In this document: positions 2,505 through 48,745 of the stretch, in pieces
How the letters are laid out: each line of letters starts with the position of its first letter
Numbering within the stretch: the first letter of the stretch is position 1
Origin: Psilocybe cubensis
Taxonomy: Eukaryota
Assembly (NCBI GenBank): GCA_017499595.2
Contig: CM039002.1
Span: forward strand, 620,001 to 684,000
DNA: 64,000 nucleotides
Reading direction: 5' to 3'
Notes under the pieces: generated by a model
Databases searched by the model: none
What the model saw: only the letters and a program-made list of their open reading frames with translations
What the model was told of the DNA's origin: nothing
Translations under genes and position numbers: made by a program

Positions 2505-4009
2505 ATGGGTAACTCAAACAACAAATCGTCATTGTTCGTTGGACTGTTGATAGCGATACCCGCAGCCACTGCTCAGAATCTCAGAACAACCACCGCATTC
2601 CCTCTTCCCAGCATCCCGACCATCTCTGCTCTCGCCCCGCTCCCCGTCCAGTCGACACAAAAATTCCAACCTCAGTTATCCATTCTGCCTAGCCAGCCCA
2701 TCTCACTGAATACGCTCGTCGCTGCCCCAGTACCATCCGGATTCCCATCTCCACTTCCAGACGGTGTTGCCCGTACCGCCTCCGGGAAACCTATACCATG
2801 TTCCCCAAAGAACGTCAAGTTGAACCCTTCAACGCATAAGCTCATTTCGGAGTGTGTTGAAACCTCTTTCTGCGCCCAACCGCCTGGGACACCTGTAAAT
2901 GCTACTGGCCTCGGAATCTGCTTCCCTCGTTTGTGTAGACGCGATGAGTATCCGTTCGGATATGGCACATATGGTGGAGGACAAGGCAGAAGAAAAAACG
3001 CGACTGTGATCCCGATCCCACCCATGTGCCCAAAAGGAACATTCTGCCCGGACACCGGTAGTGGATGCAGGCTGGAAGTTGAGATTGGGGGTCAATGCGA
3101 ACTGGCGCGGGATGAACAGTGCATGGCTCCACCGCCTAATCCAAACGTCAACCCAAAGGAGAATAAAGCGATATGCCTGAACGGTGTGTGCATGTATGTC
3201 CAGATCCCATTGTTCGCACAGTTTGCGGTTATTAATGCTGCGATTACGCGTTCGTTGTTCCTAGGGCAGCAACACAACCGTTGGGTGAAAGTTGCACGAT
3301 AGAAAACACGACGTATGTGAGCGACATGAACAGAGGTGCAGCCGGAGGAGGCCAATTCATTAGTTACGTCATCAAACACAACTGCCTCGCGCCCGATCTT
3401 TTCTGTGATCCAACCGGAAGCGCAAGCGGTCCAGTTTGTCAAAAGGTCAAAAATCTGAGTGAAAAGTGCAGGTTTGATGCTGAGTGTAAATCGGTGAGAA
3501 ACTTTTTTCCTGTGACGGATCATGGAGAGATCGCTAATAAGTTGGTTTGTTGCTTGCCATTCGTTGGTCAGGGTAACTGTGCTGATATGTCCAACACTTG
3601 CATACCAGCTCCTGACTCAGCATTCCATATTGCGCCCTGGCAATGGTTTGCAACAATTATGTCTATCGTACTCTGTAAGTTCAAAGATAAACGCAGAGAG
3701 CGAAAAGGCTGACATATTCGATGACATGATATACCAGTCCTAATCTCTGCAATTCTCGTCCTCCTATTTCTCCATCGTCGGCAACGGTACCTCCGATACC
3801 AAGAGTTGCAAGAATACTATTATGAGCAAATGAGGTGAGTGGTATCAGAATTCATATAAGTCAACAACTGTGTTGACCATAGACTTGATAAAAGCTTGCG
3901 CCGGTCGATTCTTGCCCTACACGCTGCTGCTGCTGCCGACAAACATGCAACGAGCAAAAGATCCAAAAATGAGAGTGCGGATATTGTTAGCGAGAAGGAA
4001 CGATTTTAG
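2505..4009 (+). CDS. Cys-rich secreted/type-I membrane protein of unknown function (~5 exons)
   Basis: N-terminal hydrophobic signal (SSLFVGLLIAIPAATA), Pro-rich linker and many Cys. A spliced TM segment (WQWFATIMSIVL/..ISAILVLLFL) is followed by a basic HRRQR tail. GT-AG introns join ORFs 2457-3302, 3281-3712 and downstream exons to TAG 4007-4009. Confidence 0.75.
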
Positions 4010-4419
4010 TATGGTGGAGAGTATAGCCTAAGTCATTGTTGGCTTCTATCCAGTCTGACGATTGAAGGCGTGGCTGGTGTGAAGTGATAAATAGGCTGAA
4101 ATAATGATGTGCGAGAGTATGAATATATCTACTAAGTATTCTGCAAAGAGCCGTCAGTAAATTCGCGCAGAGATTTCGTTTGAGGGACAAAAAATGGAGC
4201 TATGCATCAGTGAACATTCCACTCCAATGGTGGACAAATTAAGCCGGATATAGATCACTCTGCTTCCCAAATGCGATACCGAGGCAGAAGCCTGGATATC
4301 AACATTTCGAAGCGTCATCTGGCCCCGGCAGATGTCGTCATATAGAAGTTTGAGAAGAGGGGAGGGTACAGAACATTCACTCACATATATTGTATCCTAA
4401 ACTCCTATCTGATGGGCCT

Positions 4420-5892
4420 TTACACATCGTCATCTTCTTCATCCGTGAGCTCTTCTCCCTGGCGTATTCCTTGGTGTCGCTCATAACCATCACGGCGCGC
4501 CCATGAAAATCCGTCGGTGTACGGATTAATACGCAAAGGTAAAATGAGAGTCCATAAGGAACTGGAAACCGGTAAGTTAGTCTCTAGATTGAGAAGGGGC
4601 GAGTACGTACTACCCAGAGTCTCCTAAATTGAAAAAGAACGCCAAATTCTTCTTTTTGCTATTTCCCGATCCAAATTTTAGAGCACCGTGATGTTAGCAG
4701 ATCTGTGTACGCACCCTACATCGTAGGAGTTGACAAATTCCTGATAGGAGAAGCGTCAATAATAATTCAAAAAGCCGTACCACATCACACAGACCTCATT
4801 TCTAGCCTTCGCCTTTTTCCGGTATTCGTCGTGGTCCTGGGCTTCGACGGTGGTCTCACCCCAGGAGATGCCGTATAGATGATATGATAACATGACACCG
4901 ACTGCAAAGCATAGAACAATTGAGAGAATATACATCATGGCAAACATTATTTCTGGGACGTGATGGTCCCAAGGCTAATTGACTATTAGCCAAAGGAATT
5001 GAACAAAAAAGAGTCAAAGTACCTTATAAGATACTCCAATGGAATCAAAGAATTTATCGTATCCAGAAGCGCATAAGCAGAAAGTGGAAAGGACGAGGTA
5101 GGCCCTGTAGAACCAATGAGAACATGTTTTCGCGAAATGAGTATCAATTCTTACATGAACAACACAAAATGGCGCTCATTGTGCAAACCCACGCATTGAT
5201 TAATCCCTAACGCATATCATTACTGTTGTCTAGACAGTAACTGTGCTCATATACTCACACTATACATGTCCATGAATAAGGGTGTAGGGGTCAGGCGGGT
5301 TGAACTCACTGGACAGTGGTGGTCATATTTCAAAACACATTTATTACATATCCGACAATGATGGGCTCTCTTAAAAGGGAGTTAATAATGTACACTAATC
5401 GATAGAGCAAACGCACATACCTCTGGTCGCGATTTTTTGCATTTCCAACATTTGGTATATGAGGCAGGTGTGATTTTGGTACCTCTGGTCGTCCACCTCA
5501 CCCCACCAGTCAGTACTTTCTGTTTCCCCTTCCTTCCTTTTGTTGCCCAAAATATTCCTGTTCCAGGCTCCCGTGGAGGATCATCAACGAAACCTGGCGA
5601 AACGGTCACCACGTAGTAATAATGCATAAGTAAATTCAGTGTTATGAGGATGCATAAAGGAATTGTGATTATTGGGTATGAGAGATCCGGTGCAATTACA
5701 TCAACTGGTGTACTGGTGGTTCAGTAATGTTCATATCTTAATAAAAAGCCAAGGCTCACAAAAGCATACAACTCCAAGAGACATTAAAATTACTGCGAAT
5801 CCGACAAAGTATGGCCCAGCCGCGCCTGTGATTGCGTTCCCCCATCTTTCTAGAGTTTTAAAGCACTTGAAGACTGTCTTCGCGCATATCAT
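4420..5892 (-). CDS. DHHC-type protein S-palmitoyltransferase (multi-exon, includes probable 1-nt exon at 5259)
   Basis: Spliced product reads [48 protein letters not shown] (DHHC Cys-rich domain), with TM helices, a GETTVE (TTxE) motif and an acidic C-terminus ending at TAA 4420-4422. Confidence 0.92.
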
Positions 5893-6309
5893 GACAATTA
5901 GAGAGAGAGGACCTGGTGCCAGGCCCAGGTGGTAGTGGTGCTTGAACAGGATTGTAGGACATGACGAACGCATACAGTCACAATCATAGACTCACGTGAA
6001 ACGTCACAGTCAGAGTTCGGCACGTTCGGCATACAAGCCTTCATGGTCCCGGTCCCCACGGTGCGCGCTGCCAGTACAAATTTTCTACTGAAGTATTCGA
6101 CCCTGTGTGGCAATCGCGTGAGATAATTTTTCAGGCGCATTTTGTAATTTATATTTCCTCAGATGACTATTTCTGATGAAGTAAACGGATCTATATCCGA
6201 GAATTACGGTGTTTTCGCCAGAATTTGAATAGCGCCCATACAATGATTGGATTTGGTCAAATTGGTAGGTGGATAAGCGCCTGCATTGAACTTGTAAAGT
6301 AATCCTTGA

Positions 6310-43665: not shown

Positions 43666-46600
43666 TCATAGAGCAACGCCAGCTGCACCCCACTCGCCAT
43701 CGTCCATCTCGACCGTCTGTCTCCTGCGAACAACCTGTCTACCACTCCTCGTCGTCACCACCGTGGGCTGTTGCTGCTTGGGTTCTTCATACTCCTCCGG
43801 GTCCTCCATTTCCATCCCAATCCCCATCTCACTTCCCGTTAAATTCAACCCAAGCCCCAAATCCTGCTGGCCTGCCCCAGGACCACCAGCACCGCCCTCA
43901 CGACCTCTTTCTACAACCCTAGCACACTCGGCCCCAGCCTCGCTGCGCAAGTGCCTGTTCAGCGCATCCATCCTCGCAAATTGTTTCCGACACCCATCGC
44001 ACTCAAACGGCCTGAAATTGCTATGCAGCTGCTCATGCCTCTTGCAATCGTGCTGCCTCGCAAATCCCTTGCCACAGCCCGGCCAATGGCACTTGTACGG
44101 CTTCTGCTCATAGTGCGAGCGCAGGTGGCCCTTGAGGTTGAACCCCCGCGTGAACGTCGAGTTGCACCCAGGCACCGTGCACGCAAAATTCGCGTCCTGC
44201 TTGCGCCGCCGGATCGACGCGTTCGCCGTCCGCCCCGTCGTCACATTCTGCTTCGCAATTGGGTTGCCTTGCGCGTCTGTTGCCCCCACGCTCGCCTGGC
44301 TGCCTGCCCGCCGTCGCCCACTGCTAGGTCCTACATCGCCACCGCCATTCGACGACGCCCCATCGTTGATGTCTCGGTATGCCCCGCGCCCGGCGATTGG
44401 AACCTCCTCGCTGAACCCGCCGCTAACAGGCGGCTCGCCAATTTCAGGGCCTGCCAGTCCGAGATTATGTACGGCATGCTGCGAGTGCGCACCGCCGAGC
44501 GTCAACCCACCGCCTCCACCCAGCCCCAACCCCAGCCCAAGACCCATTCCCATCCCACCACCTCCATACCCACCTCCACCACCACCCCCATACCCATCAT
44601 CCTCCACCAGCTCCTCATACCTCACCCGCGGACTCGCGTTCGGGCTAGGATACGGGCTGACTCTACGGTTCGCCGTCAGATGCCCAGACGGCGACACACT
44701 CAAGCCCTGCAGCCCATCCCCACCCAAACCGAGACTGCTCCCACTCCCACCACCCACACTCGAGGACCCGGCTCCGACGCTCGCATGGCGCGAGTGTCCC
44801 CCATGCGCGAACGACTGACTCCCCCACACTTCCGCGCCACGATCCGACCGGCTGCCGCTGCTCGCGCGGCGGAAGTGGCCGACATGCACATTGGGCGGAG
44901 GTGGCAGACCCAGGCTGTTGCCACTGCTGCTCCCGGCAGCACCACCCCCGAGAGACAACGAGCTGCTGTGACTGTGTCCTGAAGGCGACAGCGAGCGACG
45001 TGCGGGCGGTAGATTCGGGTGTAGGAACTGCTGGCTCTGACTCTGACTCTGCCCCTGCAACGCCGCCTGCTGCATCGAATGCAACTGCGCCTGCTGCTGC
45101 TGCATATGCATCTGCTGCTGACTCTGTGAGAAATCCGGATATATACCGCTCATTGAGCTTGTGTGTGCATGCTGCCCTCCTTGTCCTTGAGCCACACCTC
45201 CTCCCTGATACACACCGACCCCAATCGTAGGCACATTCAGCCTCACATCCTCCGACCTCGACACTCTATGCCCGCCTCTGCCAATACCCAAGCTCAGAGA
45301 GTCCGACACAGCGCGCCGGATTGGGTCCGCAGGCAACAAAAAGTTGTTGTTGTTATTGTTGGTCATGCCCACGCCCATTGTTACGTTGGAGCCAGGATTA
45401 AGGTTCGGAGGGGAAGGCGAAGATGTCTTCGTACCGGATGGAGAGGACGAGGACGAGGCGCCCATGGCGCTGGTGTTGTTGATCGTAGGCGATGCATTCG
45501 TGTTGGGGTTCGGGCTGCCTCCTCTCGACGCAGACGCGCCACCAAAGCTGAACGATTGCATCTGTTGTGCCTGCTGGGCAGCCTGCATCTGCATTTGCAT
45601 CTGCAACTGGGCATGCGCCTGCTGAGCCTGCAGTTGCTGCTGCTGCTGCTGGGCTTGCAACTGCGCCTGAGCTCGCATCTGTTGCTGGCGCGCAATCGCC
45701 TGCTGCTGCTGCTGATACTCGTACGAGCCCCACGTGTCCGAGTTACTCCGCTGCCTACCGCCCATACCCAACCCCAAACCGAGCCCAAGGCCGAGAGTTT
45801 GCGACTGTCCCGCCTGCGCTTGCCCAGATAAATTGTAGCTCATATTCTCCGGGAACACAAAGCCTCCACTTGCACTCCCTCCTGTACTTCCTCCAGCACC
45901 CGTGGACGCCGACGACGGCGCACCACCGCTCGAAAGCCCCGCACTTCCCAAGTCATTGCCAACATTTGGCAGTGGAACTGGCAGCGGCAAAGGCGATGGT
46001 ACAGGGCTCGTGCCATGACCCGCCCGGGTGGGACCAGCATACGGTGATGCATGGCGCGACGCGGGCTGCGATCGTGCTTGCTGGTGTTGTTGTTGCGGGG
46101 ACAGGCTGGTTTGTTGTTGTTGGGAGAATGACTGCTGCAGCGGCGGCGATAGGGACTGTTGGTGCTGGTAGAGGTCGTTGTTGTCATTATTGCCGTTGTT
46201 GCTGTTGCTGCCAGCATACTCCTCGGCGCCTGAACGGTACACACCCAAGTGTCAACAAAAGATGACGATGCCAAAAAAAGCGAAAGCGGTAACGATAGTG
46301 ATGAAGATGATGAGACGCCCCCAATTAGATGTAAAGGAGGGATAGCGAGGGAGACCAACACGATGATGCGACGACAATAACGGATGAGCGTCAGAAAAGC
46401 GACAAACCATCATAAACAATGCCATGTTGATGGCGACGATGTAGAGGTAGTACGTACGATGTTGCCGTAGTCGCCGTCAGTCGTTGTTGTTTGGAATGGT
46501 TGAGGTTGTATAATAGTGGCGATCCATGACGATATGATGCGATAGGTGACAGACAAAAAAAGAAATGAAAGGAAAGATTCAAGTACAGGGGATACATGTC

Positions 46601-48745
46601 CGAGGAGGATCGGCAACAGTAGCGCAATAACCGATGGGCAATGGGCAATGGAACGAGACCAGGGGGAGCAGATGTGTGAAAACAGACGGAACAAATGATG
46701 TAAACAGGAAGAAAGGATAAACAAAGCAAAGAGAGCAAGGAAGCAAGTTGAGCAAAAATGATAAAAAAATAGGGAATGAAGATAAAGATAAAGGAATGCA
46801 AGAACAATGCAATCAGAGGGATTGGGAGAAGGAAACAGATCATGCCGCAGTGATGAATGAATGAATCATTGAAAGGGACAGTGGAGAAAGACCAGATAGA
46901 AAAAATAGACGGAAAAACCATTGCAAAAAATAAAAAACAGGAAAGGAAAGAAATAAAGGAAAGAAAATGACAAAGCAAAGCAAAGCAGAGATAAGGTTTT
47001 AGGAAGTAGCCAGGCAGTCGATCATACAGTATGTTGAGCCATATGATTGCGACGACGATTCATGTAGTACAATGTCAATGTCGTCGTCAGTCATTGTTGT
47101 TGTTGTGGTTGTTCCAAAACATCGGCAATAGTAGCCCAACAATGAAAGGAAAGTTGTAAAAATCCAAAGAAGAGAAAAAAAGGCAGAACAGGCATCGAGA
47201 AAAATAAAAGAAAAAAGGGTAAAGCACAGAGAGAGAAAGGGAACCAGCAAACAGACAATCAATCATACCGTAGATTGTGTGGATGCCCGTAAGTCGTCGT
47301 CGTTATGGTTGATGATAATGATGGTGTTGACAAGGTCAATGTACCGCATAACATATACCATTCAGGGTGTCGATGCCGTCAATAATCATCGTTGTTGTGG
47401 TTGATGATGATCCAAGTACAGGGGTAGATGCCCGAGAACATCGGTGGCATTAGTGCAACAACGATTGGATAAGTGAAAAGGACCAGGGGAAACGAATGCA
47501 CGGTGTGATAGAGGCGATAACAGAACGACAAGGAGCACAAAACAGACGGAGCGAGCCGTTGTAAAAAAGATTAAAAAAAGGGGACATAGGAAAGGTAGAG
47601 ATTGATTAGCAAGATAACCCAACAAATCACAGGCGATAAGCCAGGGAAAAAAACTGACCTTGGGTGAGCGTTGCGAGAGTTTGCTGGAAAGGAACATTGG
47701 CATGCCCATCGCCTCCACCACTAATGGGTGTTGCAGGAACAATGTGAAATCTCGGTCCGCCGCCTCCGGCACCTTCAGCATTCCCATTATTCCCCTCCAT
47801 ATCGTCGTCTCCCGGGGCGTTTATCTTGGGCACAGCTGTAAGCATGCTGCTATCTTGCTGCTGCTGCTGTAAGATACTTGGTGCCTCGTATTCGTCCGGC
47901 ATGAGAAGCCTGGGTGGGCTCTGCGGCTTCTGTGAGGGTAACGGAGAGTGCATCCGCAGATTGTTCGGTGACGGTGAGGTGTTTGGGTTCGCAAAACCAC
48001 CCAAGCTGGCCGCAGGCAACGGTTGCGTGCCCCAGTTTGGTGTGTGCACCGACATATTCCCAAACGAATGTGCTACATCGAGGCGGGGCGACGGGTGGGG
48101 CTGAGGGTTCTGCTGTTGGTAGGGTTGCGGGGACGGTGAGGGGCGGGGCGACTGGCTGTTCCCGTGCAGCGATGCGACTGAAGACGCGCGCGAATGTCGA
48201 CCATCTCCCCCAGCCCCACCGCTACTATTGTTCGTTGCAGCATTGCTGTATGGATGTCCGATATCGTGCGGATCGCCGCTGCTGCTCGCTGGTGAGCTGT
48301 GGTCAAAAGGCGACCCATGGGTTCGGTGTTGTTGTTGTTGCTGCTGCTGTTGCTCTTGCTCTTGCAGTTTGTGCTGCTGTTGGTCTGCAGGTGGTGAAAA
48401 GTGTGGCGACATGTAATCGGCATCCTGCGTGAACATGAGCAAAGATGAGGCCTGGTTGGTCGACCCAGAAGGGGCGTCATAGTCGGATGGTTCGTAATCG
48501 TTCATGGCGTGGAGTTCCGACAAGATATCGTAGTTTATATCCTCTCCCGAGAACGAGAGCTCAGAATGCTGCGAAAACGGAGAGTTGTAGTAAGAACCGT
48601 TGTAACTGGGAGTGTGGGTGTTGTTCGGGTCGGCGAGGTTGAAAGATGGGTTGTCAAAGTCTAGATCTGCAGGCTCACGACGCGGTGAAGGTGGAACTAG
48701 TTTAAAGTCGCCTATATAGGGCGAACCATCAGTTGTAGCGTCCAT
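43666..48745 (-). CDS. CRZ1: Crz1-like C2H2 zinc-finger transcription factor (exons 48745-47659 and 46229-43666)
   Basis: Three C2H2 fingers (FACTVPGCNSTFTRGFNLKGHLRSH, YKCHWPGCGKGFARQHDCKRHEQLH, FECDGCRKQFARMDALNRHL), a PxIxIT-like PRFHIVPATP motif and Ser/Gln-rich regions. The phase-1 donor GTCAGT (47658) and acceptor TTCAG (46230) join the two ORFs. Confidence 0.8.

Follow-up and report, generated by a model that had tools for sequence, protein, structure and literature searches.

Evidence for a single-nucleotide exon inside the catalytic motif of a predicted DHHC palmitoyltransferase gene of Psilocybe cubensis

Recursive splice sites, at which a zero-length exon is formed by AG/GTRAGT, occur in long introns of Drosophila and vertebrates. 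Exons of exactly one nucleotide have been described from plants and fungi. In Arabidopsis thaliana, Guo and Liu (2015; PMC4674806) reported a single-nucleotide exon (A333) in APC11 and proved it with substitution constructs in which the cDNA letter followed the genomic base. Nelson and Syed (2026; PMC12940212) described a one-nucleotide exon, AG/G/GT, in the PKG motif of Fusarium CYP621A; this February 2026 paper counts the case second overall and first in a fungal gene. A long-read annotation of Coprinopsis cinerea (2025; PMC12230235) reports 13 genes with a total of 13 such exons. Finally, in fungal stwintrons, as outlined in PMC5639578 and PMC9024468, two adjacent U2 introns are removed consecutively from a complex of about twice the normal size.

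Here we describe a very probable single-nucleotide exon, T5259, in a DHHC gene of Psilocybe cubensis that lies in a stretch of 64,000 nucleotides (the window). Like APC11-A333, it appears to be a constitutive exon of 1 nt between GT..AG introns that is essential for the reading frame, mis-annotated in public models and recognised as an unexplained letter in cDNA (PMC4674806). Unlike the APC11 case, which concerns a RING protein of a plant and was proven by substitution, the present one lies in the catalytic motif of a fungal DHHC protein and is known from contigs and sequence. Furthermore, the rice APC11 paralogues are reported to be intronless (PMC4674806), whereas the exon described here is kept across many diverged fungal lineages.

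The resemblance to CYP621A is closer. Both are fungal one-nucleotide exons in a conserved enzyme motif, both lie in an interval roughly double the length of a usual intron, both were missed by gene predictors, and both are backed by orthologues together with public runs, which for CYP621A were an orthologue alignment and SRA reads (PMC12940212). CYP621A differs in being a P450 gene of an ascomycete in which the retained base is G, counted there in 20-24 genes of Fusarium and Nectria, while here the base is T and the carriers are Agaricomycetes of several orders. The retained T fits neither splice-site consensus at exon positions. The one-nucleotide exons of C. cinerea belong to the same fungal class and were likewise found from transcripts; they are reported as counts (PMC12230235). 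The supplements of that paper that were searched contain no mention of DHHC or palmitoyl, and since one supplementary file lies outside the search, one of those 13 genes may already be the C. cinerea orthologue. Together, APC11, CYP621A and the 13 C. cinerea cases form a small known class, of which we consider the exon at 5259 a genuine and unusually well conserved member.

The locus shares with recursive splice sites a 3' splice site that abuts a 5' splice site and, probably, stepwise splicing in which the first step would regenerate a donor. It differs from them in that one base stands between AG and GT and is retained, and in that its introns measure about 50 nt, whereas recursive sites keep nothing and lie in very long introns. 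The site at 5259 probably works like a recursive splice site without being one. Nor is the locus a stwintron, because both introns have intact GT and AG ends and cDNA retains the base that separates them; stwintrons keep nothing, and their external intron has a splice signal interrupted by the internal one (PMC5639578, PMC9024468).

Structure of the gene and its transcript

Five public runs contain the stretch, namely three genome-sized contig sets (0.78-0.79 of sampled words) and two sets of about 20 Mb (0.32). Four of them were compared over positions 4380-6150 of the window, two cDNA-like (X1 and X2) and two DNA-like (X3 and X4). X1 and X2 are labelled as guessed RNA and have no RNA record; we treat them as cDNA on the strength of the spliced contigs themselves, from which all introns of the gene are missing. 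Each is represented by one contig (2557 nt in X1 and 1057 nt in X2). The resulting gene structure is given in Table 1.

Table 1. Features of the DHHC gene in window coordinates
Feature	Position	Strand	Basis or remark
Whole coding region, predicted DHHC palmitoyltransferase gene, 10 exons and 9 introns	4420..5892	minus	all joints seen in X1/X2 contigs with GT..AG ends
Exon 1	5892-5760	minus	
Exon 2	5704-5421	minus	
Exon 3, 60 nt, encodes 20 protein letters	5310..5369	minus	translation; cDNA piece 5310-5369
Upstream flanking intron, 50 nt, GTGAGT..GTATAG	5260..5309	minus	phase 0 after the Pro codon CCA; without counterpart in cDNA contigs
Single-nucleotide exon (very probable), T	5259..5259	minus	supplies base 1 of the Trp codon in DHHCPW; TATAG upstream, GTGAGT downstream; one extra letter in X1/X2 contigs
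Downstream flanking intron, 52 nt, GTGAGT..GCGTTAG	5207..5258	minus	phase 1 within the Trp codon; without counterpart in cDNA contigs
Exon 5, 52 nt, GG + 16 protein letters + AT	5155..5206	minus	translation; cDNA piece 5154-5206
Exon 6	5104-5023	minus	
Exon 7	4974-4795	minus	
Exon 8, 26-nt micro-exon (GAATTTGTCAACTCCTACGATGTAGG) between 54-nt and 56-nt introns	4740-4715	minus	
Exon 9	4658-4611	minus	
Exon 10	4561-4420	minus	TAA at 4422-4420

Eight joints are listed in the X1 and X2 contigs, all of them CT..AC on the plus strand, that is, GT..AG on the minus strand. In seven of them, 48-56 nt are simply passed over. The remaining joint, which connects 5206 with 5310, omits 103 bases and carries a single letter between the two sides, an A on the plus strand and hence a T in the mRNA; at least 53 letters support it on the shorter side, and the word depths are 50 and 69. 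Read through this joint, the mRNA is CCA-T-GG, which encodes DHHCPW. The contigs on which this reading is based are assembled ones, blind to rare isoforms, splicing intermediates and the order of splicing. Genomic DNA presents the same interval without disturbance, as X3 and X4, two independent DNA assemblies, are colinear with the window across it and have no insertion or deletion there. The 14 substitutions that could be located between these runs and the window all lie at or below 4983, none of them within 5207-5309; the table of pieces gives 16 differences for X3/X4 in total, so two are unplaced. X1 and X2 share the substitutions of the DNA runs and were therefore taken from a strain other than that of the window, and they belong to a study different from that of the DNA runs.

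On the minus strand, the sequence up to 5310 reads AAA TAT GAC CAC CAC TGT CCA and resumes from 5206 with GG ATT AAT CAA TGC GTG GGT. Neither flanking exon has an adjoining base able to supply the T of the mRNA. Within the 103-nt interval, T5259 is the sole T that stands between an AG and a GT, and AG/T/GT is present there once. The two halves (50 and 52 nt) resemble the other seven introns of the gene, which measure 48-56 nt. With T5259, the frame stays open for 335 amino acids; without it, a stop is reached at amino acid 212. In a shuffle control on 31 such intervals, an internal AG/T/GT with both halves of at least 40 nt arose in 2.6%, compared with 31 of 31 in the real cluster representatives described below.

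These results bear on an earlier sequence-only reading of the locus, which had placed a T at 5259 between two introns with GTGAGT donors and combined it with GG into the Trp codon; its coordinates and lengths proved exact. That reading had also held that a single intron from 5309 to 5207 would shift the frame, which agrees with the stop found at amino acid 212, and that use of the next GT would give the motif DHHCPVRIN, as is indeed the case for an intron of 99 nt from 5305 (donor GTTCAA), which keeps the frame open. It had named the cDNA junction as the place to look, and there X1 and X2 read TGTCCA-T-GGATTAAT and not the CPVRIN form. The counter-readings at this junction would have been CCAGTGAGGATT, the form that goes with the 99-nt intron, or CCAGGATT.

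Thus, four observations made at this locus are those expected of a single-nucleotide exon: a cDNA letter that is contiguous with neither flanking exon, a matching genomic base flanked by AG and GT, a need for that base both in the frame and in a conserved residue, and conservation in orthologues. Leaving aside the order of the splicing steps, we are highly confident that a real, constitutive exon of 1 nt exists at 5259. That T5259 itself would be the source of the T in the mRNA follows from the logic of the splice sites and from conservation.

The product of the gene is predicted to be a DHHC-type protein S-acyltransferase, on the strength of a Cys-rich domain, the DHHC motif and a family profile assigned by way of a homologue. 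This homologue, the transcript-like protein P0011, is 74% identical to the joined protein of 335 amino acids and carries a precomputed Pfam PF01529 match, so the family match of the window protein is one made through P0011. P0011 also matches solved chains of human DHHC20, DHHC9 and yeast Erf2, and DHHCPWVNQCVG aligns to DHHCPWVNNCVG of human DHHC20 (6BMM) with the Trp of DHHCPW aligned. The joined protein is 79% identical to a Galerina model (P0004). For the product of the large exon (5702-5421), identity reaches 87% with a protein of Psilocybe cyanescens and 76-78% with proteins of Galerina and Cyclocybe.

Several further features of the gene and the window were observed. The cut at the end of exon 5 may also be set one base further right, and the intron is then a GT..AG one spanning 5154-5105. 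For the micro-exon at 4715-4740, the cDNA contigs have a piece of 25 letters, and the joint on either side of it carries the mark 'between: not known'. The pieces table of X1 and X2 lists one 'other letter' in 5310-5369 that is absent from the table of differences; it may be a way of counting the extra junction letter. Past 4387 the X1 contig (2557 nt) continues for about 1500 nt with sequence unlike the window, while X2 ends there; this overhang could reflect an intron in the 3'-UTR, a transcript of a neighbouring gene or chimeric assembly of the contig. On the other side, the cDNA contigs reach as far as 5907, which is 15 nt upstream of the ATG at 5892, and a frame with an upstream ATG (MRLKNYL.., from 6140) occupies window positions 5908-6140 on the minus strand, 5' of the gene and outside these contigs. 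An Rfam search over the whole window gave 0 matches. At 44001-46000 the window is an outlier in composition, with a GC content of 0.62 compared with 0.39-0.50 elsewhere, and 46001-48000 shows strong GC and AT skew (+0.24 and +0.25).

Removal of the two introns

The arrangement is one of two ordinary short U2-type GT..AG introns that lie one base apart, the loss of both leaving CCA-T-GG. Short fungal introns of about 50 nt are recognised by intron definition, and for this reason each half should be recognisable on its own. The proximity of the two sites, however, would constrain when the reactions can occur. The AG of the first intron occupies positions -3 and -2 of the second donor, within the region with which U1 pairs and which U5 later holds. 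Because the 3' splice site thereby falls within the area that U1 and the spliceosome cover at the next 5' splice site, the two reactions would be consecutive and recursive-like. General knowledge of the spliceosome thus argues for consecutive and non-simultaneous removal. Direct joining of donor 1 to acceptor 2 would skip the T and produce a frameshifted mRNA with an early stop.

As to the order, we lean slightly toward removal of the upstream intron first, during transcription, which would create CCAT/GTGAGT as the second donor. The guess is made because the upstream intron is the first to be transcribed; co-transcriptional removal is usual for short fungal introns. The same exon could also be produced in no fixed order or with the downstream intron leaving first, in which case TATAG/TGG would serve as the acceptor; to this we give somewhat less than an even chance, and it is fully compatible with the exon itself. 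Either order regenerates canonical sites, and among the 31 representatives no preference for one of them is seen in the third base of the Pro codon (A in 17, T in 12, C in 2) or in the bases that follow the T. What speaks against a free or reversed order is the earlier transcription of the upstream intron together with the generally co-transcriptional removal of short fungal introns.

Signals beyond the splice sites were sparse. The minimum free energy of RNA folding across both introns (5197-5319) was -25.3 kcal/mol, with z = 0.15, which is nothing special. A branch-point-like YT(A/G/C)AY was present in 18 of 31 representatives for each half, compared with 14.4 and 12.7 in shuffles, a weak enrichment.

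Conservation and taxonomic spread

Metagenome contigs were searched with a ten-homologue alignment (A1), which yielded 80 loci. In 62 of these, about 95-121 nt stand between the Pro codon that follows DHHC and GG-AT(A/C/T) or GG-GT(G/C), and 61 of the 62 have the form GT..AG/T/GT..AG (59 of 60, to which L065 and L074 were added by eye). The sequence-only reading had pointed to an internal AG-T-GT in relatives as a mark of the exon, and conservation on this scale bears it out. None of the 80 loci has a single intron at the Pro/GG place. Three loci (L001-L003) are cDNA-like contigs that have no introns over the full match and read CCN TGG AT; the codon is uninterrupted in another 15, which are distant or paralogous.

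The interrupted intervals and the window were grouped into 31 clusters at 80% identity, and one representative of each was compared. All 31 share AG, T, GT and a G at +5. A pyrimidine (C or T) stands at -3 in 30 of them, and a purine (A or G) at +3 in every one. The remaining positions of the interval vary, with a median pairwise identity of 0.60, and the halves measure 46-63 nt upstream and 46-61 nt downstream. Three clusters contain a second AGTGT that formally matches the pattern, with lopsided halves (5/104, 85/22 and 56/42).

Three loci depart in detail. L058 (about 2867-2979), which lies on a long branch (0.86), has TG for AG before the single T (..CTTCTG/T/GTGAGT), and L045, a close relative that belongs to the same metagenome series, has the canonical form. 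Decay of the L058 copy, an error and a non-canonical acceptor are the candidate explanations. L065 (about 912-1150) and L074 (about 3065-3300) are diverged and keep the one-nucleotide exon, and each has a further intron that lies a few codons downstream of it, in the NQCVG motif.

The loci were placed by a quick maximum-likelihood tree search (LG+G4) with 92 rows chosen from the 80 loci, the window and 48 of 101 named proteins. Rows for loci consisted of tblastn pieces on P0011 coordinates, from which P0011 positions 157-164, the motif itself, were dropped. Summed tblastn scores had also been tried as a crude means of naming these loci and were rejected as unreliable, since they assigned the window itself to Flammula at 57%. 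In the tree, the window adjoins Galerina. With starred support in each case, exon-bearing loci stand beside Lactarius (L024; 97), Boletus (L067; 100), Rhizopogon and Suillus (L005 and L064; 98), Piloderma (L049, L063 and L068; 99), Macrolepiota and Agaricus (L036 and L047; 100) and Amanita (L016; 100), in a tree in which the long rows L059, L066, L072 and L074 are flagged and the root on the paralogue is unsafe. These neighbours are genera of Russulales, Boletales, Atheliales and Agaricales; orders were checked for Lactarius, Piloderma and Galerina, and we take the usual placement to hold for Boletus, Rhizopogon, Suillus, Macrolepiota, Agaricus and Amanita. L065, L074, L075 and L080 are diverged, exon-bearing and on long branches, which makes their placement unsafe, and the 5 proteins retrieved when the large L075 exon served as query include no named relative. 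Judged from the sequences compared here, the single-nucleotide exon appears to be old and to have been kept over several orders of Agaricomycetes.

Public gene models and alternative readings

Two protein searches returned 128 homologues, 101 of which carry an organism name from genome annotation and are, by name, all Agaricomycetes. Only 2 of these 101 models have the correct DHHCPW, those of Tricholomella constricta (P0028) and Taiwanofungus camphoratus (P0072). In the others the motif continues as PVR(I/V) in 44 and as PG(I/V) in 9, the W follows extra residues in 6, other inserts that are clearly translated intron occur in 27, and the region is missing in 13. For P0028 and P0072, either the one-nucleotide exon was placed by the respective pipelines or the introns were lost in these species. 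The earlier remark that gene predictors miss such exons is thus borne out in this family. In contrast to the named models, all 20 of 20 unnamed full-length proteins from short contigs read PW; these contigs measure 1.1-2.4 kb, too short for nine introns, and the proteins are therefore regarded as transcript-like.

The donor spectrum and the classes of models suggest how the commonest misreadings could arise. In the PVR (44), PVW (3) and PVG (2) models, the predictor would have opened a single long intron at the latter of the two GTs in a GTNNGT donor. Joined to GG, the fourth base of the donor would then give AGG or CGG (Arg), TGG (Trp) or GGG (Gly) in the mispredicted models. A Lactarius pair fits this scheme, as locus L024 has the donor GTGGGT and model P0082 reads PVGI.

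The same models could be taken at face value, in which case P. cubensis would have a single intron of 99 nt (5305-5207, donor GTTCAA) and an enzyme with Val-Arg in place of Trp, DHHCPVRIN. The frame would stay open to amino acid 336, and PVR(I/V) in 44 of 101 named models of relatives would agree with it. However, the X1 and X2 contigs skip 103 bases with one letter and not 99 with none, the transcript-like proteins (20 of 20) have PW and not Val-Arg, GTTCAA is a poor donor beside a perfect GTGAGT, and the PVR, PVW and PVG models would be accounted for by a predictor start at the second GT. We therefore regard the 99-nt intron as very improbable, although contigs would not reveal it as a minor isoform.

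It is similarly improbable that the T of the mRNA comes from somewhere other than 5259, either from another T of the interval spliced through non-canonical sites or by addition after excision of all 103 nt. The contigs place one T between the exons without revealing its origin, which would leave room for such a source, but only T5259 has AG before and GT after it in the interval, and the AG/T/GT pentamer is the sole element of the interval conserved over the 31 clusters. Additionally, we know of no insertional editing of nuclear mRNA in fungi. Lastly, indel errors most often show as a single-base frame problem, yet an assembly error or a decaying pseudogene with an accidental AG-T-GT has next to no probability, given two independent DNA assemblies without an indel across the stretch, an expressed and fully spliced gene with an intact frame of 335 amino acids, and the same arrangement in nearly all of the interrupted orthologous loci.

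The reading of T5259 as a constitutive exon of one nucleotide may have a wider form. The exon could be the most widely conserved single-nucleotide exon of any nuclear gene, fixed before Russulales, Atheliales, Boletales and Agaricales split, kept since then inside a catalytic motif, apparently unreported, and misread in almost every public model examined. We put this forward tentatively, as rather less probable than not. A full-text literature search found no paper linking DHHC or palmitoyltransferase genes with microexons in fungi or basidiomycetes and, for the literature on 1-nt exons, no case in a DHHC gene.

Very few single-nucleotide exons have been documented, and the case described here has transcript support as well as DNA from dozens of diverged lineages. 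For the protein family, the consequence is practical: 99 of 101 named models carry a wrong string of residues for the Trp of the motif or lack the region, and family alignments, motif statistics and structure predictions built on such models inherit the error. If the reading of wide conservation is true, it would open the questions of obligatory stepwise splicing and of whether skipping of the T acts as an unproductive-splicing valve on the level of the enzyme. The gene would then be a natural model for an intron-defining spliceosome that faces an exon without a body; irrespective of that reading, it offers a clean system for studying how two spliceosomes treat splice sites one base apart.
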